NCBI RefSeq assembly: GCF_026571515.1
Contig: NW_026855905.1
Coordinates: 1 to 64,000, forward strand
Direction of reading: 5' to 3'
DNA length: 64,000 nucleotides
Source: Ruditapes philippinarum
Lineage: Eukaryota
The notes beneath the pieces are model-generated. The model saw nothing but the letters and a program-made list of their open reading frames with translations. It did no database searches and was not told where the DNA came from. Both the position numbers and the translations under genes were made by a program. This document shows, one piece after another, positions 20,376-64,000 of the stretch. The number at the start of each line of letters is the position of its first letter. The first letter of the stretch is position 1.

Positions 20376-20400
20376 TATAAATTCAAAATTGTACCAGTTC

Positions 20401-22041: not shown

Positions 22042-22072
22042 TCTAAATTCAAAATTTTACTATTTCACGTTT

Positions 22073-22212
22073 AAATGTTGAATTCTGCCTAAGCCGGTGC
22101 TAGGGGGCGTGGACGGTAACTTGCACTTTCCAGTACCGTCCATGAACAGGCTCAATCAAACCGAGCCTGCAACATTTTCAATTTTGCCGTGTTGGGCTTT
22201 CTTTAGGGATTC
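22073..22212 (+). ncRNA. Motif A1, best preserved copy
   Basis: Closing stem AAAUGUUG (22073-80)/CAACAUUU (22170-77); P2 UGGACGGUA/UACCGUCCA with UUGCAC loop; P3 CAGGCUC-AAUCAAACC-GAGCCUG; AAUUUUG at 22180-86; 3' hairpin region. Confidence 0.6.
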
Positions 22213-25365: not shown

Positions 25366-25460
25366 AGAAAGAGCACCGAAACACGAGGCTATCTGATTTG
25401 TACAAGGGGGCGGAGCCCCCGAGAATAAATCAGATTGCCGAGTGTTTTGGTGTTCTTTCT
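25366..25460. repeat. 95-bp imperfect palindrome at the edge of an insertion of about 300 bp (probable MITE end)
   Basis: agaaagagcaccgaaacac..atctgattt..ggggg cggag ccccc..aaatcagat..gtgttttggtgttctttct; the segment is absent from the inverted paralog near 62860. Confidence 0.7.
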
Positions 25461-26646: not shown

Positions 26647-27233
26647 AAACAAGAGCTGTCTCTGAAAAGTGACTTAAGCCCCTAAAAAGAAGCTTTAACA
26701 TACAATCCGAAATATATGCCAAAATACCAGTAATACACCCCATACCGCCTTTGATTAATATCATTCCCAAAATTTAACTAAAATTCTATTAGAAATAGTC
26801 TATACAAAGGCCTATAACTGTGAAAGAAAAAATCATGCACAAAATCATGACACAATGCACACAATTTACAATTTTACTGAAATTTCTCAAGTGGTTTTGG
26901 AGATGAAGGATGGACGAAGTTAATTTTCTGAAAAATCAACATACTATGCAAAACTAAGCTTGGTGACACACAATCCTGTGAAGTTTCACTGAAATTTCCC
27001 CTACGATTTTGTCCGGAGCGCTGACAAGCTTATTTTACTAAAGATTGACCATAGCGTGGCAATAACTGTGCAAGATACTTTGAACAACAACGTATGGAGG
27101 CGAACGATTCTGTGAAGTTTCACTAAAATTCTTTCAAACGGTTTTGGAGATGAAGCGCGGACATGATTATCGGACGGACGTATACACGGACGGATAGTGC
27201 GATTACTGTATGCCGTTATCGGGGGCATAAAAA
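26647..27233 (-). mobile_element. Non-autonomous Helentron/pearl-like element with internal tandem repeats
   Basis: Minus strand starts ttttatgccccc..ggcata, has a (GTCC)n microsatellite, 2-3 diverged internal repeats (tgtgaagtttcact..aaatt; ggttttggagatgaag) and ends gacagctcttgttt. Absent from the inverted paralog near 61820. Confidence 0.7.
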
Positions 27234-30200: not shown

Positions 30201-30520
30201 ACTTTCCGAAAACGTCTTTAAATAACATCTTTGAATGCATAAACCCTTTTTTCCCTACTTTTATATGGGACTAAAAAAAAAAACAAGGGTTTTGATGCAC
30301 TATCATTTTTTGGCGGAAAGCACAATTCTTTTTTAAAAGAATTAATAAAAATAAATATTATTTTAAACCCGTCGGTTTTAAAAGACGTTTTTTTTAATTT
30401 AAAAAAAAAACACAACGGGCAGTATTGTAAAAATCCCAAATTTATGGGTTTTTGTTAATAATGGCGCCCAAAAAAAATAGTGTTTACCCAAAAAAATTAT
30501 TAATATAAATCTGGAAAAAA

Positions 30521-31002
30521 GTGATCTCTCGGAAGGCGTTAAATCACAACAAAATTACAAGAAAATTGCAGACTCGGTTTGATTGAGTCTGTACATGAGG
30601 TATAATAATTAAGTGCAACATCCCTCACGCCACGTAGCACCGGCTTGAGCGGTACAAAATTCTCAGCACTTAATATTGCTGGCATCAATGATCCCGAAGA
30701 ACCAGAAAAATATAACAACACTGAAGTGGAGGATAGTGCAACTTTTTACAGCTACCACACAGCACTTGATACCTGCTGTTGTGAAATATAAAAATCTGAA
30801 ACTAAAGTGATCCGTCGGAAACATCACTCACAGCTAAATTACATGAAGATTGCAGACTCGGTTTGATGGAGTCTGTGCATGAGGGATGATGATTAAGTGC
30901 AACATCTCTCACGCCCCCTAGCACCGGCTTGAGCGATACTCCATTCTCAACATTTAATAGTGCTGACACCAATGATCCCGAAGGACCAGAAAAATATAAC
31001 AC
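30521..31002 (-). ncRNA. Tandem array of the 284-bp C+A2 unit (A cores at 30561-30664 and 30845-30948)
   Basis: tgcagactcggtttgat at 30567 and 30851; a complete motif C lies between them. Confidence 0.6.
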
Positions 31003-33570: not shown

Positions 33571-33680
33571 TGGGTAAGTTGCACTTCCCAGTACCGTCCA
33601 TGAACAGGCTCAATCAAACCGACCCTGCAACATTTTCAATTCGTGTTGGACTTTCTTTAGGGATATTGTTTTTCTCTATT
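33571..33680 (+). mobile_element. 5'-truncated insertion of motif A1
   Basis: Flanked by tttgt (33566-70 and 33681-85); empty sites near 1815-1832 and, inverted, near 48312-48330. Confidence 0.7.
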
Positions 33681-39600: not shown

Positions 39601-40579
39601 TGAAGCATTTTCAAAACGCACTGTAAGAAATGGTAAGAAGGCATGTAAAGTACATCGTTTCTTATAGTAGTTTTAAACAGGTTAACAAACAGCCCACCAA
39701 TTTAAGAATAATAATATTTTTGATATGATTTATGAATCATCACTTTCAGCGCTGTTAATGAAACAGTTACACGTGTCAGATCCCGATTTGTTTCAAAATA
39801 ATGTTGATGTAATTTGATTATTTGTCGTATAGAAAAAATAGTTCTCGACAATGAAAGCACTGTAAATATGAAGTGAAAATGCACGACAGATTGAACGTTA
39901 GACATTGTGATAAATGATTCTGATCTGCTTAAATAGTAGATACCGCAGTCTGAGTCTGTTAAAATCATACCCTTCTTTTATAAATTAGTTTCTTGAAATA
40001 CCCTTTCTCAATGAAATGTAATCAACAGCTCAACTATTTCCTTAAATTATCTTGTTGTTATCAACTTATCGTAAATAACTGATATTGCAAACCTAATCAT
40101 CATTTTCTATTTTCACAAACTAAATGAGGACACAATTATAAATTAAGCACAAATAATTGATGAGGTGTAGGTACACGCGGTATGTAATAATACATTGAAC
40201 ATGACATAGATTCATATCCTGAGATCAGTCATACGAGGAAGTAAAATTGGATTGTCAAATAGTACTTTAGTTTACTACAACGAAATCATTTAATTTACCA
40301 TTATTATTAAGGTTTTTAGAGTTGAAACAGGACAAAACCTTTAAATTTTATAGAAAAAGACTTATACAATGACAACTTGAATGGCAAAACAAGTTATAAT
40401 TCAAACACAAGGAAAGACAAAAGAGATAATGAGATAGGAGATTTACAATAATTTTGTTGAAATGCTTCAGTTATCATATTCTACAATAATGTTAATAAAG
40501 TTTATGAAACAAATTCAATTTTGTCTTTATACCTATATATACGGGAAAGAAACATGAAACAAAAAAAATAGAGAGAAAG

Positions 40580-40706
40580 AGAATTCCTAACGAAAGTCCA
40601 GAACGGCATGATTTAAAATGTTGCATCTCGGTTTGATTGAGCCTTCTGGAAAGTGCAAGCTACTGTAAACTTCAATTAGCACCGGCGTAAGCAGTATTCA
40701 ACATTT
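40580..40706 (-). ncRNA. Motif A1, internally deleted copy (its duplicate at 51140-51235 is further deleted)
   Basis: aaatgttgcatctcggtttgattgagcct...gtgcaag...tagcaccggcgtaagcagtattcaacattt. Confidence 0.45.
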
Positions 40707-43700
40707 AAACATGTAATGGTAATATTTAAAATTGATATCATCCTTAAAATAATTTTGTATTTCTATGTGTTAATCACAGAATTAAATAAACAGCTACTTT
40801 TGCTATACTTGTTTTAAGGGAAGAAGACCGTAGCTGGTTAAAGCTACACGCCTCAAGATGAGCAAAAATATTTCAAGAAATTCAATCTTTAGAAAAATGT
40901 ATTAAGATCTAAACGAGAGTAAAAAGATTTAATATTTAAAGAGCCTGTATGTTGTAATTGAGGTTATATACCACACTTAAGTGAAATTATGTATATGTAT
41001 ATAATTATGCTCATATTTTAATTTTTAAAACAAGCAATGAACGCAACCCCACACAACCCCGTAAAGGACCAGCGGCCAGGAGCCCAGGAAGATCCCAAAC
41101 AAAACAAGACCTTAAAACTAAAATGCATTACCATACTGGAATCATGTTTGTTCAGTTGCCCATGAGGACAATTCAATGCTAATGTCATTATCGATCTTCT
41201 AAATTGTGCATTATGAATCATTCTGTCATTTATTATTCCATGGTTATCAATGAACACTACATTTTAATTTTCTTTGTTAAAAACGTGATACCCTAACGTT
41301 TGTCACGTTTTTTCTGTTGTCATATTTAAAGATCATGTACAATTAAATAAATGCTTTGAAACAATATTCAAAATGTTTATTACAATTCCTTTGTTTTAAT
41401 ATAAACTGTAGTGTTTGCCTTTAAGGGATATTCTCATTCTTTGAAAATAAAAAAATGGCATTGTAAGATTTTGATGAATGATATCAAAAGGAAAATGCAA
41501 ACAAATATTCGAATACTTTAAAGAACTTTTTTTTTCTTTTTTTTGAATTTCACGGGCTCAAAAGTGTACATACACTAAACAAGTTATACATAATTTTCCA
41601 TAAAAAACATACAAATACTATAAAATCAAATAATAATTATATTGAATTCAATGGAATTCAATAGAATTAAATAATAAAAAAGTAAATGCTATGGTGGGGA
41701 TTAGTTTTCCTGTTTTATATAAAAAAAATAACGCTGAAAATTATTCACTAAACCGCTGAAAATATCGCAATCAATTTGTTTCTGTTTGTACAATAACATA
41801 ATAACCAATCTGAGTAATTTTGGCAGATCAAGTTGTACTTAGATGGATAGTTCATCTTTAAAAAGTTTGAGTATCAAATTGTGTCAAATTTTATCTTTTT
41901 GAATCCGTGTATTTTTCTGACTGAACTTTTTCAGATATAAACCCGAAAACATAAGCATCAACTATATGTTCAAATCAACCATTTTGTTGCAAATTCAGAT
42001 TTATTGAAAATTATGTTGAGTAAACATATAACGAGGGAGTGGATAAAATTTAACAGCATAACTTTGCTGTTGTTCAGAATTTACTTTCAGCGAATATTGT
42101 TCGTCTCAATTAATTTGAGGCCGAACATTTTCAAATTAGTAAAATCATGTTTGTTCAAATGCTTACGGGGATATTAATTTGATGTTGCTGTCATGATCGA
42201 TCATATAAAATGTGGTAAAATGCATTGTTCTGCCATTCGTAATTCTTTGGTAGTCGATAATCTCGGTATTTGAAATATGCATGGCGCATTATATAATTCC
42301 CTACAGCATAATCATCTTGTGCTCGAAGAATCATTCATTCAAATTTGATAATGTTATAATGTAAATTGACTGAATTCATAATTATCCCTCATGCAAGGTT
42401 GAAAAAGATTTTCAAACAAGCAAAATAATATCTGTGTCTTTTCCCAGTGATCTCAATCAATAAGAACGGTGTTTTAAGTAACATTTCTAGTAATACTAGA
42501 TATCAAAGGGTGAAATATTAAGAATTTGAATAAAATAATACTTATTTATCTATTTTATTGACAAAATAAGTTTCAACTTTCAAATAGAAAAAAAAACTTG
42601 CAATTCTAATGTCGTTTTTCATGTAATGGTATCGGATTGAATATTCACATTCAGCCATTGGAGATTTTGATAATATCGTATTATAGTTTTTCTAAGATTT
42701 ACAACATTTATTTTGCACATTGCACATACTATTCAAATTGTTATTTACAGTCGAGACTGCATGAGTGATCCCTTTATATCAACAACTCTCGCCTTATCCT
42801 TATTGATAAACTATACATTACAAGTAAAAACTAAAGACCAAAAGAAAAGAAAATGAATAAAACTGGGACAGGACACTTATAAGCTTTCATAGCTTAAATA
42901 TATCGAATAAAATATGTTTAAACCAAAAAGAATACATGTATTGCTATCCTACAAGTATCATGTCAGTATCAGCGACATATGTTTATTTTCCTTAGCAAGA
43001 AAGATTACGTGAAATGATTTTGATTTGCTTGTATAAATCCGTAAATTGAATGAGGGCAGTGACCGAAAACGACTTACGATACCATAACAAAAATCATTTG
43101 CACATGACAAAATCACTTAGTTTTACGTATAAACATAGTTTATTACAATTAAGTAAATATATCTACAATTTCAGAAAAAAAATACAACTTTTGTCTTGTC
43201 TTTTCTTGTCTATAACTTTTTCCTTTTTACATCAAATGATATGTGTAATGCAAATATATTTATAAAGGAATGAACGTTGTTTTTCCTAATCGTTTAATGC
43301 TTAAGTACATGGTATAGCATGTAAGACCCAATAATCCATTTTATATCCATCATGTTGATGACAGTGATATCCGAATATGACATCCGTGTACCGATGGGAA
43401 TATTTCTAATCTGTTTATTTACTTTGCACCAAATGATATTGAATATGACGAAGGACAAATGTACGCCCCTCTTGAGAATAAGAGGACGTCTGGCAATAGG
43501 AATCCGATCGGACTCACGGGGACCCTCTGGTAATCGTTATATCAAATAAAATCAAATTCTTCGGCACATTTGGATAATTACAGACGAAAATGACCGGTAA
43601 AATTATTCTAACTTATTTAACGATGATATGTATAAAATAATTGCATAACTGACGGTGAAAATCATAATGAATTGAAAAAATGTTCTTGTTTATTTTTGTT

Positions 43701-45250
43701 TTGAATTACTGAAAATTATTGCTATAATGCCGTTTTAACTTTTTATTTTGATAGGCTCCAATTTGGTGCATACATACACAGAATTAGGGCTACACGTGTT
43801 GTGTATAATTGTTAATTTGATAGAAATGGTAAGGAAACAGTAAAGATTGGAGACTGTGCGATTTTGTTCAATTTGAGGATATACCTTTTTAAACGTTTCA
43901 GCTCAAACTTTCACAAACAATGGCGTAGTTATGCCTGCATGAAATGTCAAGAGATAAAGTAGAAACGATATATGACGCAGCGTTAACAATGAAGTATATA
44001 ATCATTTTCTCTTTTTACATATACTTAAGCAAATTTATTTGACATTCTCCATCTTCAAAATATTTTAATCTTTAAGTATGCTCCCCATGTAGAATGAAGA
44101 AACAAATTACTTTCACGGTAGAAATGACACTTTTGTAGATTATTTTTCTCTTAAGATTTATTGTTTTTAAAACTAATATTTGGACACAGTAATGAAGTTG
44201 ATATAACTTATTTAGGGTATAAATGTCATTCCAATGCGATACTGCCTGAATCATCCAATGTTTAATCGTTTGAGACTTATATTCACAACAACAGATAATC
44301 AGTGCAGTATGACAGCTGTAAAAGCTTGTCTAATTAACTTAAACTGCACATATTATACTTTTGTTAGTGTGGAATATTGAATTTGGCTTATGATTGCGAA
44401 AGTAGGCGGAATGGTTGGTGTACCTTTTTTTGAACTTGATTTTGAGTTGAATAACCGAGAGAGAAATATTCGAACAAACGTATTATGTTTTCATATCGAT
44501 ATATAAAGTAGAGGTATTATATTTAAATGTCTTAGTTAGATGGCTTGGAGGATATCTATCGTCTAGAAACTATTCAAAAGAGACTCTTTCTCCTTGTTAA
44601 GTTATATATTTTATGTCTACAAAGAGCGTATTTTTTAAGTTTTCAAATATTTATAAAAATAAAGAAATGTATCATTTGGTTAAAAGATATGTTGTATAAT
44701 GCCTGGAAAAATGTTGATAAAGATCAAAGTGACGTTGTATGAACATTTATATGGTGAATAAAAATATTTTGTTGGAGAACATTCTATTATATAAAAAACA
44801 TACGATATCGAGTCATGGATCTCTTTCATTCTTGTCAATAACATTCATTCCTAAATAATTTCGTGTTTGTTCATATGTCTGATAGTAAATACTATCAACG
44901 TAACTATTTTCATTATAATACACACCTAATTTATAGATCAAGTCACTTTAAACTGATACTTCACCTGTTAAGCGAATAATGCTTGCCTCTGATATAGCGA
45001 TACAGCTTATACTATATTATTGTAGAAATATCATATTTGACACTTATGAATGACTTTATATTCTTGAACTGATCTTAAAATTATCTATTAGTCAAGTGTT
45101 AGCTACTTTGTGACTTTAAAGGGGTATTTTTTATAATGTCTTAAGATGTCCAGTGTTCTACCCAAACCATTGTTATATTGTGTGAAAATGAAAGTCAAAA
45201 AGTATTGCTGCTTGACATGGCATTAAATACGCATGCTTGTTATATGTCTC

Positions 45251-45490
45251 TTTTCATGGAATGGCACGGAAGTGTCAAATTGAAAGTTCCATGATAACCG
45301 CCATGAACAAATCTGCGGATGTTCCTATATATAACATTTTACCATTACATGTTTAAATGTTGCATTTTTCTTATGGTAGGGGATGTGAACAGTAGCTTGC
45401 ACTTTCCTGTACTACCCATGAACAAACTCAATCTAACCGAGCCTAAAAATTTTCAATTTTGCAGTCTTGGGCTTTCTTTAGGGATTCTTA
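45251..45490 (+). ncRNA. Motif B plus degenerate motif A1
   Basis: tcatggaatggcacggaagtgtca..ttccatga, then aaatgttg..taggggatgtg..ttgcac..ctcaatctaaccgag..aattttg. Confidence 0.45.
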
Positions 45491-45854
45491 TTTTCTCTTT
45501 GTTTTGGTGTATTCTGAGACCCTGGTGTTTTCTTTCTTGCTATGAAGAAAAATGATTGATGTAGTAAGTCTAAATAGGATCAATTAACACGACACGGTTA
45601 AAGGTACACTAGGAACAATTTTGAGTCTGTGAAAAGCAGCAGTAGTAAGTGATAAATGACATAACGAATGTATATTTGTTTTTCTTTTCTATATATTTCG
45701 TTTGAATTCCAAAATTAATCACAAAATATACCTACATAGTTTTTTGAATACGATAAGTAATTGATAAAACTTCATGTACTGGTGGTATTCACAACTTGAA
45801 AAAGTGAAACAAACTGTATTGTTGCTGTTCGAAAATACAACGTTTCGAAACAAG

Positions 45855-46280
45855 GCTCAAGCCGGTGCTAGGGGGCGTGAGGGATGTTGCACGTATTCAC
45901 TATCCCTCATTTACAGACCTAATCAAACCGAGCATTTCTCTTGTTATTTGGTTGTGATTAATGCTTCCGAGGGATCACTTTGTTTCCAGATTTGTACGTA
46001 TACTTAACAACAGCAGGTGTCAAGTGCTATGTGGCATCTGTAAAAATTGCCCCGTACTTCACTTCAGTGTTGTTATATTTTTCTGGTCCTTCGGGACATT
46101 GATGCCATCACTATTAAGTGTTGAGAATTGAGTACCGCTCAAGCCGGTGCTAGGGGAAGTGAGGCATGTGGCACGTATTCATTATCCCTCATGTACAGAC
46201 TCAATCAAACCGAGTCTGCAATTTTCTTGTAATTTTGTTATAATAAATGTTTTCGAGCGATCATTTGTTTCCAGATTTTC
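45855..46280 (+). ncRNA. Tandem array of the 282-bp C+A2 unit
   Basis: aagccggtgctagggg at 45859 and 46141, with motif C and a GUCC-UUCG-GGAC hairpin between them. Confidence 0.6.
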
Positions 46281-46299
46281 ATTAGATTAAAGGTAAATG

Positions 46300-49180
46300 A
46301 ATAGGAACCCAGAGATACATTAACATATTTTGTATCATTATAATTGATATTTTAATGATATTAATTGGTAAAATCATTTAAATGAATGATACATAAAGCA
46401 TTCCACTCGAAATTTTGCGTCATTTCATTACATCATCTCATCTTTATAAAAAGGAACACAATTATAACAATTATTGTTTTCTGTTTAGAACACCAACTAG
46501 TCAATTATTTTAAACCGTTACACTACAAAACAATACTTCTTTAGCTGTGTCCTTTTTATCTATCAAAGTAAATCTATATACGGCAAGAAATAAATTGAAA
46601 TTATAGCAACCTTTTGCGTTTCTAATGGTCTATATATTCACAGTCCGAAAAATACATCCTTCCCTTGGGGTAAAATAACAAATATATGAAAATAAAGATT
46701 GTGACGATAACAGCTCAAGTGTTGACTTTTGTACTTTTTTCTACATTTTTGTACTATTGCAACAGTGAAATATGCCATGTGCAATATTTCAGGAAATCAA
46801 CAAAACCTCAAAATCTTCTTACACATCATAATTTTTTTAGCATTAAAGCCCAGAAATTCTCAAGATATTTTAAAGGAAAATACTCCATAGTTCTATAATT
46901 TAAGTTAATTTAAAAACGTGTTTAATATGCACAGGTACTAATGCTTAATTTTAAACAGTTTAAGTAAAACTAAACAGAATTTCAAATTCATACTTGACAT
47001 TTTTCGTGTAGCATATGAACGCCACCTGGTGTGTATGATGCATAAGGGAATATGTTGACCCACATTCTGTACGACTCATGATCACCGTTATTGATTGATT
47101 TCTACAAGTTATTAAATTTATCAAGAAATTCATATTGGATATGTGAACAGTCTTCTGATATATCCAATACGTTAATTCATTTTTAGATTTGCTTGTATTT
47201 TACCCGAGTCTGCATATATAATAGAGTGAATTAAAGAATCCTTAAGGAAAGCCCAACAAGACAAAATAAAAAATGTTGCGGCTCGATTTGATTGAGCTTG
47301 TTCATGGACGGAAATGGAAAGTGCAAGTTACCGTCCACCCCCTAGCACCGGCTTAAGCATAATTCAACATTTAATCATGGTAATGGTGAAATTTTGAATT
47401 TAGAAACATCCGCAGATGTGTTTATACGGCGGTTATCATGGAACCTTCAATGCGACACTTTCGTGCTATTCCATGAAAAGCGGCGTATGGTCTCCAAGTA
47501 AAAGAATGCGCCAGTATTGCATAATAAACTTTTTAAAATAGAACTATAACGAAGATGTTTGGAATATAGTGACATTAGACATCTAATGGAATGACACGTT
47601 TTTGAAAATGTTGACAATCTCTACATACCTGTGTTGTCATGTTAAAGCTAAACCAAGAACATAAAATCATATAGACAACATTCATATACACGTGAAAAAC
47701 TTTAAAGGATTTCATTAAATATTTCATATTTAAGCTTAGGTGGAATCCAGTATTTGGGTAGAAAATGAAAAAAAGCATAACCTTGTAATTAAGTAACATG
47801 TAATCATCTAGTCATAGTGATTTTGTAATTTGCAAGCAGAAAGATTTTTCTGTTTAATGTTCGTTCGAAAACAATTTGAAATAAGATATGACAAGGAAAG
47901 GCGGCGTTCAACGCACGCAACCCCCACACGACCCAGCGGCAAGGAGCCCAGGAGGACCCCAAACAAAAGCAGGGCAGGGCAAAGCATGGGCAGTTTAATC
48001 ACTAAAATCATACATCAGTTTACAATGTCACTATTCATTGGATAATCGTGACGTTTATATAGTTTCGTATACACGCCTGCAATTTTCTAGGACTTTTTTT
48101 CTCAAAAAAGAGGTTTGCAGTTTTATAAATTCGTTATAAATATTCCTGTCTGGTTATATGGCCGTATATAAACGGTTCTTTGCAATATAACCCTCACCTA
48201 GCGGAAGCTGCCCGGGTCGGGTTATATTTCCAAACAGCCGGTTATATAGAGCCATTTTAACTGTAAAAAAGCTTTATAACTAAGAACATACACGACATGT
48301 ATCTTAAACAAAGTTTATTTACAAAGCAGTTATTCTCACTGCAAATATGCAATTATAATATAACTTAGGGACATTTTTAACATGACTTATAAGGGATTTG
48401 TTATTGATTAAATATTAAGTAGAAAATAAAATTATAATAATGATTCAGATACTAACGGATCAATAAAAGGTGTACATTTTGTTATTTTCTCTTTATTATA
48501 TTGTTAGTGTTCTACAATCCTAAGAAATAATTAATTCATCAGTGTAAGTTCATGGATGTGGACATTACAGTACTGCTTATTATACCCTTTTCAGCCATTA
48601 ATGGTAGCATCGTTTTAAATGCCTAAACTGTAATGTACAACAATGTAATTAGAAGCATTCTTAATAAAAGACACAAACAATTTTAAGCGTTTAAGTGAGT
48701 TTCATTCTAAGAGACGTGCATTTCTTACCCTGTGATCCTCATTTTGTTATGTTCCAATCATAGTGCAGACCAGTACGCCTTTTTTCATGGAATATCACTA
48801 ACGTGTCAAATTAAATGTTCTATGATGATCAACGTTTATTATTTTGGCTTTTTTATTTCTGAGGCAATTATGATGCCGGATACAAAAACAATTTTACGGC
48901 AATCAAAACGGTGATTGTAATGTTAATTCGGCATTTTAATTAAATTTAAACGTCGTATACACCACGCGAAACGGAAGACTACAGTTGATTTTAATTGCCT
49001 TTGATTAAAAGAAGTGTGTATGATTCGACACGATCTTTGGTTCATTCCATTATTTTAATTATCGAAGAATGTCCATATTTGCATCCAGCTAACGGTTTGT
49101 TTTTATAATACCTCTAGTTACTAAATTATTGTTTTGTCAATAGCCTTGTCGGTTAATAGAAATAACTTGAGAAAATTGAA
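46300..49180 (-). repeat. Inverted, rearranged third copy of modules from about 760-3730 / 32600-35350
   Basis: Reverse-complement matches: 46545-47215 vs 2910-3545, 48030-48700 vs 1385-2460, 48775-49160 vs 930-1260. Confidence 0.88.
47235..47495 (-). ncRNA. Motif B plus motif A1
   Basis: B at about 47405-47495 (hairpin loop GAAA instead of GGAA); A core at 47271-47372. Confidence 0.55.
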
Positions 49181-49194
49181 AATAACGGAATAAT

Positions 49195-52100
49195 ATAAGC
49201 TGGTATGACTTACATTCAGATCCAATTTTGCGGATATTTAATTTAATAATAAATGCAATTTCAAAAATGTTGTTAATTTCAATAAGAAATTGTTAATGTG
49301 TTTTCACGTTAGTTGTAAGTCTTATTTTCTTTCACCAGCAGATATCATACATTTGAAATTGGCATTCTTGATAGCAACAAATACAAAATACGTTGACAGG
49401 TTTGTGAAAAATTACATGTTGCACCTTTATTACAAATCACTAGCCAAAACTCTACGCCTACGATTTGCACGGTAAAGGTGATACGGAAAATTACTGAAGT
49501 TATTTCTATAATACGCCGGGGACATAAAAGAACGGATAAGGTATTGTAAGGGGATTGCAAAGAACCTATTTATTGTAACGTTTATAAAATAAAGTTGCGC
49601 TAAACTTATTGACTTACATTTATATCAAAGAAAGCCAAGAAGACAAATATATAATTCAATACCCAGAAGACTTTGATTTCGAAATATGTCTAAGATATAT
49701 CTTTCACAGTTTGTGGTCTCTATTTTTGACCAAATGATAACGTTTTTCCACATTTATAAAGAGGGTTTTTACATGGTGAAGAGAAAAAAAAGTCAACACA
49801 ATGTATGTTATGTCTATACTTACTAATTTGCTGTTTCTCGAAGAACTAAAATATCCAAGATGTAGGATAAAACCGGATGTAGCAAAATATTTGCAACATA
49901 TTGAAATATAAAAGGTATGATCTTATGAAACATGTTAATTAAATATGAATGTCTTGCAATTTGGCCAATAAAACGCTCAGTCCAAGATAACTGAAGGCAT
50001 TTAAAATATGATTAACGTGATCAACAAGGAGAGGCGGGGTTCAATAAACGCAACCCCGAAACAACCCAGCAGCAAGGGCCAGCGGTCAGGAGTCCAGGGG
50101 GACCCCAAACAAGTTATAAACTGATAAAGTAAAAAAGGTTAGTAAGTAAAAATGACCCAAATATATTTATTAGACGTCAGATATAACAAGATAAGTTGAC
50201 TATCCATCATACTAGGATGTTGCTGTAAATAAGTCACGGAAAGATAAGAAAAGTATCTTTGTAGTATCTGAAGCATTTTCAAAACGTACTGTAAGAAATG
50301 GTAAGAAGGCATGTAAAGTACATTTTTTCTTATAGTAGTTTTAAATGATAAATAATGTTGATGTAATTTGATTATTTGTCGTATAGAACAAAAATAGTTC
50401 TCGACAATGAAAGCACTGTTAATATGAAGTAAAAATACACGACAGATGGAATGTTACATATTGCGATTAATGATTCTGATCTGCTTAAATAATAGATACC
50501 GCAGTCTGAGTCAGTTAAAATCATACCCTTCTTTTATAAATTAGTTTCTTGAAATACCTTTTCTCAATGAAATGTTATCGACAGCTCAACTGTTTTCTTA
50601 AATTATCTTGTTGAAGTAGATCTCTAATTGTAATCAACTTTTCGTAAATAACTGATATTGCAAACCTAATCATCATTTTCTATTTTCACAAACTAAATGA
50701 GGACACAATTATAAATTAAGCACAAAGAATTGATGAGGTGTAAGTACACGCGGAATGTAATAATACATTGCACATGACATAGATTCCTATCCTGAGAGCA
50801 GTCATACGAGGAAGTAAAACTGGACATCCAGATTGTCAAATAGTACTTTAGTTTACTACAACGAAATCATTTAATTTACGATTTTTATAAAGGTTTTTCG
50901 AGTTAAAACAGGACAAAACCTTTGACATTATAGAAAAAGACAATGACAACTTGAATGGCAAAACAGTTTATAATTCAAACACAAGGACAGACAAAAGAAA
51001 TAATGAGATAGGAGATTTAAAATAATTTTATTGAAATGCTTCAGTTATCATATTCTACAATAATGTAAAACAAATTCAACTTTGTCTTTATATCTATATA
51101 TACGGGAAGGAAACATTAAACAAAAAAAATAGAAGGAAAGAGAATTCCTAACGAGAGTCCAGAACGGCATAATGTAAAATGTTGCATCTCGGTTTGTTTG
51201 ATCCTTAGCACCGGCGTAAGCATTATTCAACATTTAAACATGTAATGGTAAAATTTAAAATTGATATCATCCTTAAAATAATTTTGTATTTCTATGTATT
51301 AATCACATAATTAAATAAACAGCTACTTTTGCTATACTTGTTTTAAGGGAAGAAGACCGTAGCTGGTTAAAGCTACACGCCTCAAGATGAGCAAAAATAT
51401 TTCAAGAAATTCAATCTTTAGAAAAATGTATTAAGATCTAAACGAGAGTAAAAAGATTTAATATTTAAAGAGCCTGTATGTTGTAATTGAGGTTATATAC
51501 CACACTTAAGTGAAATTATGTATAATATGTTATAATTATGCTCATATTTTAATTTTTAAAACAAGCAATGAACGCAACCCACACAACCCGTAAAGGACCA
51601 GCGGCCAGGAGCCAAGGAAGATCCCGAACAAAACAAGACCTTAAAACTAAAATGCATTACCATACTGGAATCATATTTGATCAGTTGCCCATGAGGACAA
51701 TTCACTGCTAATGTCATTATCGATCTTCTAAATTGTGCATTATGAATCGTTCTGTCATTAATTATTCCATGGTTATTAATTAACACTGCATATTCTTTTT
51801 CTTTGTTAATAACGTGATACCCTAACGTTTGTCACTTTTTTTTCTGTTGTCATATTTAAAAATCATGTACAATTAAATAAATGCTTTGAAACAATATTCA
51901 AAATGTTTATAACATTTCCTTTGGTTTAATATAAACTGAAGTGTTTGCCTTTAAAGGATATTCTCATTCTTTGAAAATAAAAAAATGGCATTGTAAGATT
52001 TTGATGGATGATATTAAAAGGAAAATGCAAACAAATATTCGAATACTTTAAAGAACTGTTTTTTTTCTTATTTTCAAATATCACGGGCTAAAAAGTGTGC

Positions 52101-52370
52101 ATACACTTAACAAGTTAAACATAATTTTCCATAAAAACATACATATACTTTTAAATTAAATAATAGTTGAATTCAATGGAATTAAATAATAAAAAAGTAA
52201 ATGCTATGGTGGGGATTAGTTTTTCTGTTTTATATAAAAACATAACGCTGAAAATTATTCACTCAACCGCTGAAAATATCGCAAGCAATTTATTTCTTTT
52301 TATACAATAACATTGTTTCGAAAGATTAACCATGTATCATAATAACCAATCTGAGTATTTTTGGCAGATC
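49195..52370 (+). repeat. Direct duplication of about 38530-41830 (about 3.2 kb, high identity)
   Basis: Collinear from gacttacattcagatccaatt to ttttggcagatc. Confidence 0.93.
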
Positions 52371-52371
52371 C

Positions 52372-52730
52372 AAATCAAACCGAGTCTGCATTTTTCTTGT
52401 TATTTGGTTGTGATTAATGCTTCCGAGGGATCACTTTGTTTCCAGATTTGTATACTTAACAACAGCAGGTGTCAAGTGCTTTGGGCATCTGTAAAAATTG
52501 CCCCGTACTTCAGTGTTGTTATATTTTTCTGGTCCTTCGGGATCATTGATGCCAGCACTATTAAGTGTTGAGAATTGAGTACCGCTCAAATCCGGTGCTA
52601 GGGGGCGTGAGGTATGTGGCACGTATTCATTATCCCTCATGTACAGACTAAATCAAACCGAGTCTGCAATTCTCTTGTAATTTTGTTGTGATTAATGTTT
52701 TCGAGCGATCACTTTGTTTCCAGATTTTCA
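52372..52730 (+). ncRNA. C+A2 unit (278 bp) preceded by the 3' part of another A2
   Basis: aatcaaaccgagtctgca at 52373 and 52651; closing stem GAGAAUUG (52570-77)/CAAUUCUC (52667-74). Confidence 0.6.
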
Positions 52731-54412
52731 TTAGATTAAAGGGAAATGAATAGGAAGGCAGAGACACATTTACATATTTACATATTTTGTTTCATTATAA
52801 TTGATATTTTAATGATATTAATTGGTATAATCATTTAAATGAATGATACATAAAGCATTCCTCTCGAAATTTTGCGACATTTCATTACATCATCTCATCT
52901 TTATAAAAAGGAACACAATTATAACAATTATTGTTTTTCTGTTTAGAACACTTAACAATTTTGTTAAGTTCCACCCATTGTGCGCAAGCACTTTATTTTT
53001 ATTTGGGACCGGTACGCCTTTTTTTCATGGAATATCACTAACGTGTCAAATTAAATGTTCTATGATGATCAACGCTTATTATTTTGGCGTTTTTATTTCT
53101 GAGGCAATTATGATACCGGATGCAAAAACAATTTTACGGCAATTAAAACGGTGATTGTAATGTTAATTACGGCATCTTAATAAGATTTAAACGTCGTATA
53201 CACCACGCAAAGCGGAAGACTACAGTTGATTTTAATTGCCTTTGATTAAAAGAAGTGTGTATGATTCGACACGATCTTTGGTTCATTCCATTATTTTAAT
53301 TATCGACGAATGTCCATGTTTGCATCTAGCTAACGGTTTGTTTTCATAATGCCTCTAGTTACTAATTTATTGTTTTGTTAATAGCCTTGTCGGTTAATAG
53401 AAAAACTTGAGAAAATTGAAAATAACAGAATAATTTTTGCTTTCTTTAATTATATTTAAACACAGTTAAATATTAAAAACGATGAGTATCAATTTATGAA
53501 GATACACTTTTGCTGCCCTGCATTTGACATAATAGTTTGTTTTATTGATACTTTGTACATAACAACATAAACATGGGGCTAACGTTCACCCTACCGGCCA
53601 GACAAACGATTAAGTTGCTCTTGATTCAGCCTTTTAAATTTTTGAATCTTGAAAAACCTGGAAAATTGCTTCTAATATGGTAAACGAAAATTCATAAACC
53701 ATAGAAATGGCTATTTAAATATAAATATGAATGTTTTGTCATAGATATCTAAAGCTATTGATGATATATTTATATATATATTTATTATACCATTTCAAAA
53801 ACGATAATTTTGCTTCTTTTCTCCCAATGACATTTTCTATATTCATCATGTTTGTTCGAGCAGGTGATGTTGCATTTATAGCTTGATGGCAAGTACTGTA
53901 TTTTCTATTTTGGAGATTGGAAATCATGTTATGTTAAACTGGGATATTTTTAGGGTGAATTATTGAAAATATTTATAGAACAACACAGGTACATGAAACA
54001 CAAAGAAAATAAAACCTCCCATATATATATAGAGATAAAATAATAATGTTATATAAATGGATTATTAAATTCAATATAGTTATACTTTCCCCTTATCTGA
54101 TCCCACGTAGGGGAAACTATAACTGTATTGAATTTAATAATCCCTTTATATATATACTTTATCTGTCTAAATTCATTGTATCCTACGGATCTACTTGATC
54201 TTACGGGATCCAGTTGACTTTCGGAAATAGATATATAGTTCTCTGGTCCCAATCGGTGAGGAAGACAATAAGACATCGTTGATTTGTGAGACATGATAAT
54301 AGAGAACAAGTTCTATATATGCGAATGTTGAGCCTGTTTCAATGTGTAGCGCAGTTTGTGACTGTATATAAAGCTGTTCTGAAACCATCATTTTTTTTAT
54401 GGTTGATGAGCA

Positions 54413-55362
54413 GTGGCTATGCTTTACGACTGTTCTGCTAGATTAATGCTTGCAGATTTGCAAGTAGAACTTAGGCATTTACGGTATGAGATATTCAATA
54501 TCAAGACTGAAAATATCAAATTAACAAAAGCTATAACTACGTATGATCATCGAATCGGTTGTCTAGAGATGGAGCTCAACAAATGTAAAAAAGACATAGA
54601 AGTACAAGCACGTGTAAATACAGATTTAATCCGTAAAGTACATACTATAGAAACCAAATTGTCATATGATGAAAAACATGAGTCCAAAAAGATTAACTCC
54701 AAAGCCAATCAAAGTACAATAATAATAACTTCTCCAAGTAGCAATAAGCAAAAAGTAAAGTCATACTCAGCAGCTGTCAAAGAAAATATAAGCACGGTAA
54801 CTCATCCTGATAGAAGCCCAATCGAAAAGAAGAGACAAATATGAATCTACATACTATCATTAATTAAAACAGTCAATGTGCCACTGCTAACAACAACATG
54901 GGAAGTATTGAAGCACACAGTTCAAAATCACAAACAAATGAAAACATGAAAATTGAAACAATTATAAGAGAAAGATCAGAGCATAAATTCAACGGAACAC
55001 AATATGAAAAAGCAGCCGTCTATCACCCAAAAGAAAATGTTCGAGAAAAATCGTGGAATGCATATGACAGCGAGCCGAAATTCGAAAGCATTGATAAACG
55101 AAAAACATCAATATATTGTGTAGATGGTTTAAGAAGTGACTCTAACAGAGCTGGATTAGTAGAATATCTAACTGAACGAGGGATAACACCAGTTAGTGTT
55201 AATTTGTTTCAAAGCAAACGCAAATGCCTCAGTGCTCAAGTTACTGTATATAAAGAAGATGGTTATATAATTGAAAATAAAAGCTTTTGGCTGAAAAAAA
55301 TGTACTGCCGTCGGTGGTATGGAATAAATGAATGGGCAAATTATTACAATGAAAATGTTTAA
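54413..55362 (+). pseudogene. LINE ORF1 (coiled coil, SYSAAV motif, RRM-like C-terminus), disrupted
   Basis: Two ORF pieces (54413-54844 and 54898-55362); heptad-rich N-terminus; C-terminal FW...CRRW directly upstream of ORF2. Confidence 0.75.
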
Positions 55363-58300
55363 ATTTGCATTCTATATCATTTGTGGACTTCTGTTAACAC
55401 CTTTAAATGAAATGTGTTCAAGTACTGAGCAATTAAATATAAACACGTTAACTTGGAATGTTCGAGGCGCTATGTCCTCTTCTGCTAGTTTAAGCAAATT
55501 GTTAGACGTCTTTGATGTTGATATAGCCTTTATATCTGAACATAAATTAAAACTGTAAAGACTTTTTCAATAGCATTCATACAGACTATTTATCTGTTAG
55601 TAGATTTGATAACTCTACCATGAAAAGTACTAAATTGGGGAAAGGAGGCGTCTCTATTTTATATAGAAAACAGTTATCCTTTAATATTAAAGAAATAGAG
55701 CATAGTTTCAGTGATCGCATTGTTGGTATAGAAATATGTCACTCAAATGAAATATCCTCATTCTTATTTTCTGTATACTTACCATCTGTAAATTATGATT
55801 TTGATGAATTCAAAGACTGTATTGACATTTTGGAAACTATTTCAGAAAAATATTCCAAAGAAGGAAATGTTATGTTTTTTGGAGATTTCAATGTTGATGT
55901 ATTTATTGACAAGCCTGACAAAAGAGATAAATATTTCAAGCAGTTTCTTAACAGAAACAACATGTCTTATGCAAAGACTGGAGGTTGTAATCATACGTTT
56001 AGACCTACCTCAAAGACACTTGATTACGTTGTATTCAATCAGTATAATGACAAACTGATATCAAAGTGTGAAGTAATAGACAATGATCTTTGTCATGTTT
56101 CAGATCATAATCCTATACACGCTATATTAAACATCCAATTTTCTAAATATAGCTTTCAAGAAAGTTCTTATCCGAATACAAACGGGTCCAAATGTTTGGA
56201 AAACGAAAAGCGGGAATTCAAAAATATAACAAATATTGATGTCAATGACTACCTTGAAAACGCCGTGAGAAGTGACCCTATAGATTTGATAGACAATATG
56301 AACCTTTATCTTGTTAATCTATTACTTTGTGCAGCTGATAAAACACTTCCAAAATTTAAATTTAACAAGCACTCAAAGCCATATTGGACTAAGGAAGTTA
56401 AGTTTGCGCATAGTGAACAGAGACGTCTTAGACGTATTTGGATATCTGAGGGCAAACCACGTGGTAAATGCAGTGTTTCTTTTACAAACTATAAAAATGC
56501 TAAAAGGAAATTTAAACAAGATCAAGTAAAAGCTATCTCAGACGTGGATCGTCAATTTTATGAATATCTCGAAGAACATGCTGAGTGTGACTCTAAGATT
56601 TTTTGGCGCACTGTTAATCAAAGACGTTAAAAGAAGCAAAACATAGTTCGAGGAATTATATCTGATGACAATAGCGTTCAAGATAACCCCATTGATATCG
56701 CAGAATCCTTTAAAAAACACTATCAACACATATTTCTTCCCACAGAAAGTAATTCATTTTATGAGGATTTTAAAGATAAAGTGGATGCTGAAATGAGAGA
56801 ATTCATTAATTCAAATAGTTTCTCTGAATTTGACAGTATATTTGGGAATTCTGTGCAAGAGAATGAACTTCAAACTGCGATAGATTCTTTGAAAATCAAT
56901 AAAAGTGGAGGTCATGATAAAATTGTAAATGAACATATAAAATATGCAGGGAGTGGTGTTTGCAAGCTATAATTGGAGTTTTTTAACCTAATGATACAGC
57001 ACGAATACATACCGCGCGATCTTAAAAAAGGTATAATCATTCCTGTATTGAAAGAAGGAAAGTGCTCTAAGAAAGTTACGAGTTATAGACCAGTGTCACT
57101 TTTACCAGTTATTTATAAACTGTTTGAAAAAGTTAAAATGAACAGAATACAAAAATGGTTATGTGAGACACAAATGCAATTTCCGAATAAATTACAAAAT
57201 GGCTATCAAAAGTATCTTGGTTCATTAACAACTTAATTTGTCCTGAGAGAAACCGTATCATATTATTGCGAAAATGGTTCAGAACCATATGTTGGTCTTT
57301 TAGACACCTCGTCAGCCTTTGACACAGTCTGGCACAATGGACAATTTAACAAACTCAAACAAATCGGCATACCATCAAAAACTCTACGAATAATAATGAA
57401 ATGCTACAGCGGAATGACGAGTATTATATATGTGAATGGAACTGTCACAGATGCGTTTTTATTGCACCAAGGAAAAGACAGGGAGGAGTGTTGTCAAGTT
57501 TTTACTACTTAATCTACATTAATGATCATCTAAATGAACTAGAAAACAATAAAATAGGTTGTTTTGTAGGAAAATTAAACTGCTCCGCGCCTACAATGAC
57601 AGATGATATTACTCATATTTGCCCGATGCAAATTCTCTACAGTCATCTCTTAATATTGCATATTCATACTCATGTAAATGGAGGTTCCTTTTTAATCGAG
57701 AAAAAAGCAAATTTTTGATATGCAGCTTTAGAAGAAACCCACATATACCCCTCTTTACGGCTGTGAACTATGGAAAAGTATGACATTGAATGATTCAAAT
57801 ATCGTAGAAAGGTTTGTAAGACTCTGTGCCAAACGTATACAAAATTTCAGTCAAAGAACAAGAACGGACATCGCACTAAGTATGCTTGGTTGGTCATCAA
57901 TGGAGTCAAATATTGACAAAAGAAAATAACTTTTTCTCGAAAAACTATGCACAACACCAACAAATCTACTGGCAAGACAAATTTTCGATCTTAGATTACA
58001 GCTGTTTATAAATGGAAATTTCACTATTCAGAATGGATTCATACCAGATATATTTAGAATTCTAGGAAAATATAATTTTACAGATTACTTATACAACTAT
58101 GGCAAAAGTGGTCGTTTTGCTTCTAAATGGATGTGGAAAATAATTGTTAAAAAAAGCTGTTAAATCGTTTACAGTTTTTGAATGGAGAAAAAAAATATCT
58201 TTGAAGATGAAGACTTTATTCGTTTCAGAAGATTACACCTGGACCTTAAACCTGCTATAATTTACTAAATACCACGTAATGCTCAGGAGTTGACTTTGTG

Positions 58301-58649
58301 TATGTACATTGCAAAATTATGGGCAAGTGTATCATACTTAAAAATCCAGATGTGTTTAAAATGTAACGTTCAAACAAGTGATATATTGACGCATATATGT
58401 TTAGAATGTCCATCTAACAACAATGGAAGATCACACTTTTTTGATCAACTCAATTCAATTGTAAATATCAATATTTTACAAGACATACATAATCTTTCAA
58501 ATCCTTTAAAACTTGACGCTATGATGGGATCTCTTCTTTTAAACACATATGCCATAAACCCAAACGAGTACCACTCCTTTTTATTCAAGTCGTTTGCTTA
58601 TATAAAACTTGTTGTAGGCAACAAGTTTACTGTCAGAGAAACTAACTGA
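55350..58649 (+). pseudogene. LINE ORF2 (AP endonuclease and reverse transcriptase), disrupted
   Basis: APE: TWNVRG, ISEHKL, GGVSI, VYLP, GDFN, LDY, SDH. RT: YRPVSLL, AFDTVWH, RQGGVLS, TDD. C-terminal CLKC..H..C. Many stops and frameshifts. Confidence 0.92.
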
Positions 58650-60221: not shown

Positions 60222-60489
60222 AATTGAGCCGTATCATGACAAAACCAACATAATGAGTTTGCGACAAAACCAACATAGTGCATTTGCGACCAGCATGGAT
60301 CCAGACCAGCCTGCGCATCCGCGCAGTCTGATCAGGATCCATGCTGTTCGCTTACAAACCCTATAACAAGTATAGAAACTGATAGCGAACATCATGGATC
60401 CTGATCAGACTGCGCGGATGCGCAGGCTGGTCTGGATCCATGCTGGTCGCAAATGCACTATGTTGGTTTTGTCGTGACGCGGCTGAATT
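60222..60489. mobile_element. Foldback MITE with terminal inverted repeats of about 100 bp
   Basis: gacaaaaccaacatagtgcatttgcgaccagcatggatccagaccagcctgcgcatccgcgcagtctgatcaggatccatg is mirrored almost perfectly at about 60390-60475; 25-bp internal duplication in the left arm. Confidence 0.9.
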
Positions 60490-62281
60490 AAAGTATAATT
60501 ATATTAATCTGTTGCATTGTTAATTTTCATATATTTTAAAGGCATACTATTCCTCAGAAATAAATACAAATAATTTTCTCTAAAAAGGGCGGGAATTGTT
60601 TTGTAATGTTTTAATGGTGTATTGTTTTGATTCAAGAGTAAATTTGTGTGCAAAAGATTTTTAATTTGAATTTGGGTATTATTATTTTTTTACATATTCA
60701 TTTACATATTTATTGTTGTTGTCATTTATTTATTTTGTTGTTCTTGTTTATAATTTTATAATTCTACCTAAACAGGAGATAATGGATCAAAATAGTTGAT
60801 AAAGTATATTTTAATCATATAATGCCATCATTTTGTTGTTCAAATATTCACATTGATCTTTTTAGTTTATCATTTATTCTTTACCATGCAACGTCCAGTC
60901 TACACTCGAATTTGATAAGAGCATTCAACACCAGGATTTAACGTCATACAAAAATAAAAGAAGATTGATCTTTATGAATTGTGAATGATCAACTTCGGCC
61001 TTTTAAACACAATACCCTAAAACGATTACACGAAACAATATAAAGTATTATTGAAAATGTCCAAGTATTTGTGGATTTCAAAGCAGTGCAATCATCACCT
61101 TTTTGATCAAAATAAATTTATATCAATGTATGAATTATAAATGCTGGTGAATGAAAACTGTCAGATGTTTTTGAACTAACTTTTAAGTCATGTTTCAGAA
61201 AAGACACATCGAAGTAATTAACCTCGAACGCTCCTTTAGATAACTTCAATTAAACTCAGGAAAAATGATGAAATCGTCACAAAATATGTGATGTGATTCC
61301 TTGGATAATTCGAGTATTCTAACAATTCATTGTTATTTGTCTCTCGATGAGATTAAAACAATTCTTTGTAACCACGTGACACTAAAATACAATCTTCAGG
61401 AAGAGATCAGGCAAATATGTTAGATTTCATTTGAGTTTTACCTAAAGCTATTCTCATACACAGCGTGTTTTAGATATTATATTTTGTTTTTTTTAGAAAT
61501 CTCTATAATTGCAAATATTTAAGATAGGTAAACGTTTTTTTGTTTTTTTGCGTTTACGGTTGTTGGTTTCTGTTCCATTAGGTTAAATCAATTCTTTGTA
61601 GCGACGTGTTACTAAAAATACAAACTTCAGAGAGAAATTAGGCAAATGTGTAAGATTTCATTTGGATATTTCCTAAAATAAAATGAAATAAAATATATAT
61701 TGCCTTTGGATTATTATGTTTGTTTGTTAAGAATTCTCAATAATGCAAATATCTTAGCTGCAAGTATCTTTAAAAGAGAGATGAACTTTTTTGTGTCTTT
61801 TCATTTTTCTTTTGATGTGAACAGCCAACCTATCTTCATTATTTGAAATTTAATTAAATTAAAAAAAACATGAACATCTTCAAAATTAGTTATTGAATAG
61901 CAATCACATTTTAGCAGCTTTATGAGTCAAGAATAAATTTGCAATGAAATTATCTTTTTCCAACATTTTTTGCAACAATGCCTTTGTTTTTTGTTAAATA
62001 TGGGAGTTTTAAATGAATATTTTTCTTGCTAAAACAATACAATACAAATTCAAGGTAGCATTACACGAGATATATTTTACTGACTCAAATGCTTTAAAAA
62101 TGTAAAAGAGACTTTTTGTTATCTAATAAACGACTTAAACAATATTTGATTCAGTACTAACTGCATAAAGAATTATTATTAAGTATTAACAATGTATAAG
62201 TAACCTAGTCCTACTCGTATCAACAGTTTAAACATATTTCACTAGGAAATCAAGGAAATGGTTTCTTAAACTGGATAAATT

Positions 62282-62375
62282 GTGATCCATCGAAAGCATT
62301 AAAGATAGCACAATTACATGAAAATTGCAGACCCGGTTAGATTAAGTCTGTACATGAGGGAAAGTAAATAGTGCA
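62282..62375 (-). ncRNA. Motif A2, 3' half
   Basis: gtgatcc...aaaattgcagacccggttagattaagtctgtacatgaggga..gtgca; not present in the paralog near 26200. Confidence 0.45.
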
Positions 62376-62923
62376 TCAAAACTCATAAATAGATAAATCC
62401 AAGTACAGCATGTTCTCCGTCGTTGTTAATGGTACCTTTAATGTGTCACAGTCTATAATCGTAAACACCAGCATGTAAGGAATGATGTAAAATGTATTAT
62501 GTGATTCCTTACTCAACAAAAATTCAGACATGAATAATAGTATTATTGACTATAAGGAAATAATTTCTAAAATTTGCAAAGCTGAGAGAGTTTATTATAT
62601 ATTGATGCAATGACTGTATTTGTTTATTTTCCAAGAGATCCATTATTGTGATACTTCTTGTGTGGTCGATCATTTTAATTAGGTTTCTTGCATTGTTCTG
62701 TCATATTCAATGCTTTGATACATAGTACTTGATATTCCTAGTACTTCGCTGACTGTGCAATTGATAATGTTCTCGAATATTTTATTCGACCTGTTACACT
62801 CATTTTCAAAAGACGTAAATGGTACTTATATGGTATCAAAACTAAGCTTCAATATCAATCAATTGTACACGAGTACGCTTAATCGCTATGCTCATTAAAA
62901 TTTCATTTTGATTAAAGGTTTAT

Positions 62924-62975
62924 AGCCGGTGCTAGGGGGCGTGTAGGATGTTGTACTTAACATTATCCCTCACGT
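62924..62975 (+). ncRNA. Motif A2, internal fragment
   Basis: agccggtgctagggggcgtgtaggatgttgtac..atccctcacg; not present in the paralog near 25300. Confidence 0.45.
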
Positions 62976-64000
62976 TGCATAGTAATATATTTAAAATTTA
63001 CGTAAAACGTCTTAAATATCTTTCATGGAAATCTAAATACGCTCGTGTTCTTTTGGGATTACTTTCTACAAAAAGTTTACTAATAGGAAGATAATATATT
63101 CTGATTTCTGCATATTTAAGGACCAATTATTTCTTTAAATTTGAATGTGCGACACTCATTAAAAATGCTGAACATTTCCCAAAGGCTAGTTTCTATAAGC
63201 TGTTGATTACCCCAAGTTATCCAAAGACGATTTGTAGATATCTTAAAATTTAACAGCTCGTTAAAGCTCTAAATGTATTCCTGTAATAGTTTGCTAAACA
63301 ACTTATTTCCAATGAAAGATTTTATATAAAATTATGTTTATATATGGTGGTCTAATATAATTTTAGTGTAATACATGTTTATCATTTTCACGAAGAATAC
63401 GCATTCTTAAGAAATAAGTTTGAACGGGTATCATTATTTAACTTCGTACAACAGTACGTAATTGTTGAAGAATATTGTTACTTTTGTATTGAAATTTGTA
63501 GTTATGATGCTACTGTGATGAAATATAATCTAATTTTGTTGACAAATGATTAATGATCATAGAAAAATCGTTAGAAAAGTCATTGAAGAGAAGGCCTTAG
63601 TTAAAGGATGAAGTTTCTTCTTAAAAAATCCCGACGAGAAAACATTTAATTTGTACTAATGGCTTACACGATCATTACAATTCGATATCATAAATTTTCT
63701 GTCAGCTATTGTGTCGAGGTACTTGATAATCTCGTTATTGGTATGCATATAACGTATTCTTTCATTCTCAAGAGTATATCAAATGTGGACATATCACTAA
63801 GAGATAGACCACAAGGTTAACAGTGATAAATCATTAATAATTTGATAAGAAAATACCCAATCTTCAATTAACCTTACAGTAACCTATTTGTAAAACTTGT
63901 AGTTTTCTTACCACTTGAGAATTTTACATACTGTAGAAAATTCAATTATTAATAAATCAATAGTTAGAATGATTTAAGAGACAGAAACTTTCTTCGGTAC

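Follow-up and report, generated by a model that had tools for sequence, protein, structure and literature searches.

What is the short tandem repeat near 52.4 kb of the window, i.e. of the whole stretch of 64,000 nucleotides analysed here, and how does it multiply? A preliminary description had reported three arrays of a unit made of motif C and motif A, likened this unit to retrozyme or rolling-circle products, and suggested a self-cleaving motif of a new kind. The letters and coordinates of the three arrays, with motif-A spacings of 284, 282 and 278, match the window sequence. We name this 284-bp repeat family F283. The reading proposed here, to which we assign a probability of roughly 0.6, is that F283 is a protein-less hitchhiker of the Penelope-like element Naiad, likely pasted by the Naiad enzyme from circular or tandem RNA docked at motif C. 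F283 is most likely a non-autonomous, Naiad-dependent, retrozyme-like element without hammerhead.

F283 arrays in the window and in the genome

The arrays of the window and the boundaries of the 52.4 kb insertion are the following.

52372..52730, + strand: F283 array of about 1.3 units, 5'-truncated; 266 of 284 letters equal the family consensus
45855..46280, + strand: F283 array of 1.5 units, duplicate (flank included) of the 52372-52730 insertion
30503..31001, - strand: independent and more diverged F283 array of 1.75 units; 260 of 284 letters equal the consensus
52442..52451, + strand: internal unit junction CCAGATTT, where arrays stop; probable start of reverse transcription (array-end counts; F630, Naiad)
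52720..52730, + strand: fixed 3' end of the insertion (array-end analysis)

Because their right flanks are 92% alike in a self-comparison of the window, the 45.9 and 52.4 kb arrays are one duplicated insertion. The window holds two independent F283 insertions, not three. A paralogous site near 3786-3793 (about 3.8 kb) is empty, i.e. without the 45.9/52.4 kb insertion. Copies of a 630-bp sister family, F630, or of older subfamilies lie at 10282-10448, 19946-20572, 21865-22230, 33573-33682, 40565-40733, 45242-45500, 47216-47510 and 51126-51262. Large, diverged segmental duplications (70–90% alike) relate 28-10574 to 31377-41799 and 45587-53434, and a second one relates 23123-28360 to 60618-63923. 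Broken LINE-type frames at 11730-15252 (+), 54410-58649 (+) and 23547-24089 (+), with endonuclease and reverse transcriptase matches plus an RNase H fragment, have no relation to F283. The long self-complementary segments 60262-60474 (91%) and 54050-54152 (85%) are possibly miniature inverted-repeat elements, and a partial tRNA-like Rfam match at 4433-4491 (-; 36.4 bits) is perhaps the head of a SINE.

In the genome (1.41 Gb, about 30% GC), exact matches of the 3'-end 19-mer reveal at least 8,459 F283 copies, with none for the reversed control. The motif-C core has 5,460 exact copies (reversed control 1) and a motif-A 17-mer has 13,945 (reversed control 0). There are 3,251 F283 genome candidates, 40 of which were scored (91–100%), and DNA-read depth corresponds to roughly 12,000–22,000 copies as estimated from Hi-C-biased reads. 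F283 therefore does not stem from a single local tandem duplication later copied, the option that would have spoken against the earlier proposal, as its copies are dispersed genome-wide. Its tandem units are inside the 150–450 bp range of retrozymes and low in GC.

Array ends were analysed on 128 F283 arrays and fragments from 70 stretches, picked by the 3'-end 19-mer; a separate set of 142 pieces, including about 30 F630 cross-matches, was left out of the counts. As many as 80 of the 128 end at most 8 bases from the junction, directly 5' of motif C, a share that is inflated by this mode of picking. Likewise, 62 of 156 F630 pieces end at the junction, as do 51 of 79 arrays of M277, a 277-bp family with 122 loci on metagenome contigs of a second animal. 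The 5' ends of F283 are evenly spread, with 0.4–0.5 stops per 100 bases. More than one unit is present in 23 of the 80 junction-ending arrays and more than two in 3, and arrays as long as 4–6 units occur. Stops are twice as frequent in the second turn, about 1.0 per 100 bases (p about 0.0004 versus the first-turn rate), with only 4 of the 23 arrays passing 420 bases; such rates would be expected either from strand displacement on a circle or from finite templates. An inverted copy is found at the 5' flank of 7 of 80 F283 arrays and of 5 of 62 F630 pieces. Target-site duplications of at least 8 bases, searched as exact matches, were seen for 1 of the 80 F283 arrays, not above shuffled pairs. 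F283 displays the hallmarks of Penelope-like elements: fixed 3' end, 5' truncation, partial tandems and 5' inversions. The dispersed copies, the fixed 3' end and the truncations running past the unit boundary support the retrozyme-like or rolling origin suggested earlier.

Motif C, a predicted junction clamp and Naiad

The elements around motif C of the 52.4 kb copy are located as follows.

52452..52521, + strand: motif C, a predicted long irregular hairpin capped by an A-rich apical loop, homologue of the Naiad 5' head (comparison and fold)
52421..52432, + strand: upstream strand of the predicted clamp stem, pairing with 52531-52542 (duplex energies, consensus fold)
52531..52542, + strand: downstream strand of the clamp stem (predicted fold; alternative: local GGUCC-UUCG-GGAUC)
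52553..52570, + strand: hairpin CAGCACU-AUUA-AGUGUUG, specific to F283; M277 has a different hairpin there

The region is densely structured, as had been claimed: it is more stable than shuffled sequences, with z of -3.05 for 52452-52570 and -7.3 for the family unit. From the folds of each family and their alignment, motif C is predicted to be a single long irregular hairpin, consisting of an outer helix ACAAC/GUUGU, a middle stem, (A/U)GUGC/GUAC(U/A) and GGCRGC/GUYGCC, then the A-rich apical loop. Over six family representatives, pairing reaches 91.7% in the inner helices plus a small downstream hairpin and includes 7 double changes; these figures leave out the outer helix, which the aligner had put out of register. 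The six families being related, these pair counts are not independent events. None of 500 shuffles was as good, and slid pairing gave 27–48%. Alignment position 39-55 is unpaired in 4 of the 6 families.

The enclosing helix UAACAACA/UGUUGUUA of the preliminary description is supported by inspection, with both sides changing in F630 and M277. Its inner hairpin does not hold: it is 64.8% paired over the six families, with 223 of 500 shuffles no worse, and costs 11.6 kcal/mol relative to the long hairpin. The 3' arm on which it was drawn, GGCAUCUG, occurs as a variant in the 45.9 and 52.4 kb copies and is absent from the eight commonest arm classes, which cover 107 of the 112 copies outside the window; the usual arm, GGCAGCUG or GGCAGCCG, is found in 96 of these 112. 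Besides this variant arm, the copy at 52452..52521 has a 5-base deletion. A kissing interaction between GUGC of motif C and GCAC of motif A had also been envisaged. It is unlikely, because GUGC is predicted to pair with motif C's own GUAC (probability 0.95–1.0) and because Naiad keeps GUGC without having motif A; in its favour, M277 would retain the complement as GUGC/GCAU. Long-range pairing of CCCC (motif C) with GGGG (motif A) was considered and dropped, both being locally engaged and Naiad keeping CCCC without motif A. As for GGUCC-UUCG-GGAUC, this hairpin can be drawn in all six families (86.7% paired), whereas in the whole unit its local pairing probability is 0.0 and a long-range stem is predicted instead.

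In this predicted stem, which we call the clamp, 12 bases 3' of motif C pair with 12 bases 5' of the junction. It encloses the junction and motif C, and is possible only in tandem, circular or elsewhere-opened RNA. In 5 of 6 families, the upstream strand pairs best with the downstream strand of its own family as judged by duplex energies; matched duplexes reach -17.7 to -20.9 kcal/mol, with 0–2 of 300 shuffles as good. The clamp fails in the second Naiad, a single copy, which is equalled by 50 of 300 shuffles. We propose that the clamp domain may position the reverse transcriptase to begin at the junction. Penelope-like reverse transcriptases are the closest relatives of telomerase, and telomerase RNA encloses its template, an arrangement to which the clamp can be likened.

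Head and junction are common to Naiad, F283, F630 and M277, and both sister families contain motifs C and A, F630 having the same end point as F283. F283 shares its terminal cis-sequences, motif C and the junction, with an autonomous element of the same genome, Naiad. A peptide pattern located 114 Naiad places in the genome. Among 20 of these that were examined, 6 have motif C some 1,000 bases 5' of the endonuclease motif, and one more has a partial copy. All five printed Naiad tails end in a T-run directly 5' of motif C, and tandem copies continue into motif C. One locus presents a 1,065-codon frame with TGA read-through, in which N-terminal GIY-YIG-type, CxC, DKA and YLDD motifs are recognized by eye; this copy has a SECIS match with an E of 1.5e-4, just below the gathering score. 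Since a Pfam search matched no family for this frame, the Naiad assignment is based on these motifs and on a by-eye likeness to Naiad_Mmer. In the accessible supplement of PMC8557442, the published Naiad_Scon has a motif-C homologue at its start, the sole one found there.

Motif-A matches are also co-located with Naiad, at about ten times their density near other Penelope-type elements (60 in 160 kb of Naiad loci versus 11 in about 294 kb). Those in the Naiad loci correspond to inserted F283 or F630 copies, none belonging to Naiad. Across fifty stretches with canonical C-terminal-endonuclease Penelope loci, motifs C and A occur in bystander copies and not in the Penelope element. A scan of viral contigs found nothing, and a second search pattern applied to the own genome revealed no new families.

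The F283 head is homologous to the 5' head of the clam selenoprotein group of Naiads (Naiad_Scon, Naiad_Mmer; PMC8557442). Like these Naiads, F283 has a fixed 3' end, forms partial tandems, shows 5' inversions, lacks a canonical hammerhead and has unclear target-site duplications. Unlike Naiad, it has no open frame and measures 284 bases versus about 4 kb (same source). F283 carries motif A; Naiad instead has a separate twister-like tail tag, located about 390 bases before its 3' end and present in 15 of 20 loci as well as in Naiad_Scon and Naiad_Mmer. An example of this tag (locus L181, about 2360-2500, -) has no Rfam match. A candidate Naiad intron (L188:970-1480, and L182) would begin at a GTAAGT within the pseudo-LTR and end at a pyrimidine-rich CAG of the body. 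As it contains both the junction and motif C, the latter would be missing from a spliced Naiad message; no splice joint was seen at a read depth of 0–5. Motif C itself, the head shared with Naiad, does not look like a self-cleaving part. It is most likely the landing site of the Naiad enzyme rather than a ribozyme.

Motif A and a twister-sister-like core

Directly downstream, motif A comprises the following parts.

52571..52675, + strand: motif A, with closing helix, two covarying hairpins and a twister-sister-like core (family comparison, folds)
52584-52589, + strand: GCUCAA of the core
52590-52596, + strand: self-complementary spacer, altered in the 52.4 kb copy
52597-52601, + strand: GCUAG of the core

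The strongest candidate for a ribozyme lies in motif A, with a likeness to the known twister-sister-like class. That it is active as such is a tentative proposal, with slightly less than even odds. The earlier statement that hammerhead, HDV and twister cores are lacking agrees with our searches: no Rfam ribozyme match was obtained for the window, for the region of the finding or for four tandem loci, and no type I hammerhead was found in the F283 unit with Rfam or by eye from the consensus. Hatchet, pistol, HDV and twister layouts were fitted by eye to motif C or A and failed across families.

The closing helix and two hairpins covary in three families, which also keep the single-stranded letters GCU(C/U)A(A/U), the self-complementary spacer and GCUAG. 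The L1 letters G5 C6 N7 A8 G9 / G59 C60 U61 N62 A63 are found in all three. In the accessible parts of the two reports, these motif-A letters are like those of twister-sister (PMC5660989) and of the LINE-1/OR4K15 minimal ribozymes (PMC11620745): the LINE-1 twister-sister-like ribozyme has the loop letters of the core GCUCAA/GCUAG (PMC11620745), and the conserved L1 of twister-sister tolerates A7U and C62U (PMC5660989). Such a core turns up in 0.7–1.2% of shuffled units (1,500 shuffles of each unit), a frequency to be read for a class picked post hoc among about ten ribozyme classes. Like twister-sister, motif A has predicted A8-U61 and G9-C60 pairs, a looped-out G59 and a GCA hairpin loop (PMC5660989, as far as accessible). 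Unlike it, motif A does not have two stems flanking L1 inside one motif: one stem is the self-complementary spacer of 2–6 bases, which requires a second, adjacent unit. Loop 4, UGCAAG with A34 and G35 in twister-sister, is replaced by (U/G)GCA(C/U) on a stem of about 11 bp versus 5–6; the minimal class also does without A34 and G35 (available text of PMC5660989 and PMC11620745).

When two F283 units are folded, the key core pairs form unprompted, with probabilities of 0.92 and 0.98, versus 0.0 as a circle. The M277 core, whose spacer has just 2 bases, reaches 0.83–0.87 across two units versus 0.44 in a circle. The F630 core is poorly populated (0.15 in the two-unit fold). A competing GAGU/GCUC hairpin covers GCUCA in the fold of the F283 unit. 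No accumulation of 5' truncations is seen at the predicted cut GCUC^A, where 3 of 53 arrays at risk stop. This excludes linear monomers produced by cleavage as the principal template and lends no support to cleavage.

The RNA runs that contain the repeat are labelled mollusc metagenome; two of them, X22 and X23, are labelled RNA-Seq but rich in GATC-GATC joints (Hi-C-like), and were treated as DNA. In the one true RNA run, X24, whose library type is not stated, F283 RNA is low (865 reads in 7.4 million) and Naiad is near silent. In that run, 88% of the F283 reads continue into unrelated sequence, and both directions are alike. No pile-up of read starts or ends was seen in X24, the predicted cut included, in short reads that do not separate circles from tandems. 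One metagenome copy (L304) represents an additional family that contains both motifs, C and A; it has the core GCUUAA-GCCGGU-GCAAG and carries the exact 5' loop strand of twister-sister.

Proposed copying model, rival explanations and known systems

The Naiad reverse transcriptase and endonuclease would dock on the motif-C hairpin, and copying would start just upstream of it, at the junction, on circular or tandem RNA. The clamp stem, predicted from covariation and folding, would bring the junction and motif C together into a single domain. Because arrays stop just 5' of motif C, the final landing site would be lost with every new copy, and the simplest way to renew arrays of more than one unit would then be from a circle, or else through successive template jumps. 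In the least certain steps, the motif-A core would assemble when the spacers of two units pair and would cut at GCUC^A, which has a little under an even chance, and this cleavage would release unit-length RNA for circularisation. The complete picture, a hammerhead-free retrozyme class with a 284-nt circle, a Naiad-derived clamped landing domain and a cross-unit twister-sister-like ribozyme that would spare circles, is rather unlikely.

A parasite of Naiad could also do without any ribozyme, motif A being a protein-binding or stabilising fold and the templates coming from uncut array read-through or from joining by template jumps. We take this seriously, at appreciable though less than even odds. 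The absence of a truncation pile-up at the predicted cut, the low F283 RNA, the lack of an Rfam match and the competing hairpin over GCUCA all fit, and the doubled second-turn truncation rate, with 4 of 23 arrays past 420 bases, is what finite templates could yield. However, the single-stranded letters kept in three families are exactly those of the twister-sister-like loop, about 1% by chance, and arrays reach 4–6 units. If motif C were instead a new self-cleaving motif cutting at its own 5' side, the fixed array end would be the cut site. This end abuts motif C in four families, in which the apical loop and CCCCGU hardly vary. Yet the fold predicted for motif C is that of a simple hairpin, lacking pseudoknots and junctions, the array-junction letters vary between families, neither inspection nor Rfam yields a fit to an HDV, hatchet or twister layout, and protein docking accounts for the same pattern. 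We consider a self-cleaving motif C quite improbable.

Motif C could as well be a promoter or splicing-related element of Naiad, retained by the short repeats for their transcription. Its position at the Naiad 5' end, within the candidate intron across the pseudo-LTR boundary, is in line with this, as is the internal promoter that Penelope and Chlamys have at that place (PMC8557442, available text). The double-sided changes that preserve RNA stems and the predicted pairing of the clamp across the junction argue against it, and a promoter alone does not fix a 3' end. This explanation is unlikely; such a role may coexist with that of landing site. Finally, a Helitron-type element or ordinary satellite spread as DNA circles, with pairing acting on single-stranded DNA, would agree with the unclear target-site duplications and with the opposite strand of F283 beginning with TC after A at the fixed end. 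This TC is not kept in F630, M277 and Naiad; the Helitron ends 5' TC / 3' CTRR are not conserved, the fixed-end letters differing between these families and F283. The many G-U pairs in conserved stems, the 5' inversions and the head and junction shared with a reverse-transcriptase element argue against it, and the Naiad homology largely refutes this origin, which is very improbable.

F283 has several parallels among known systems. Like the animal non-LTR retrozymes, it forms low-GC, highly self-paired tandems of 150–450 bp, derived from or dependent on Penelope-like elements (PMC7229834 and bioRxiv 10.64898/2026.07.22.740005, both in their available parts). In contrast to these, it has no type I hammerhead and its partner is Naiad (PMC7229834, available part). 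Mussel retrozymes have abundant circles; no abundant circular F283 RNA was seen in the one RNA run, of library type not given. Like non-autonomous Chlamys elements such as MRC1, F283 is a Penelope-like head-to-tail repeat without hammerheads, but those elements resemble their partner at the 3' end and F283 at the 5' head (accessible text of PMC8557442).

How Penelope-like reverse transcriptases recognise RNA and where copying begins is an open question; Naiads reportedly do well in the absence of hammerheads (PMC8557442, available text). With its head, predicted clamp and fixed start, F283 would constitute a natural substrate of 284 bases, which makes both questions testable on one short transcript. 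If true, the hammerhead-free class would be the smallest test substrate for start-site choice by Penelope-like enzymes and would show that Naiads use non-hammerhead ribozymes. In the literature covered, mostly titles and abstract starts outside subscription journals and repeat databases, no description was found of F283 or of twister-sister cores in such repeats. This analysis contributes a fold of motif C drawn from all the families, discards the kissing model and adds the predicted junction clamp, the end statistics and the cross-unit folding test. In five loci (L366, L385, L387, L406 and L407), 3' ends of Naiad or F630 are fused directly to 5'-truncated F283 copies, either by nested insertion or by serial template jumps.
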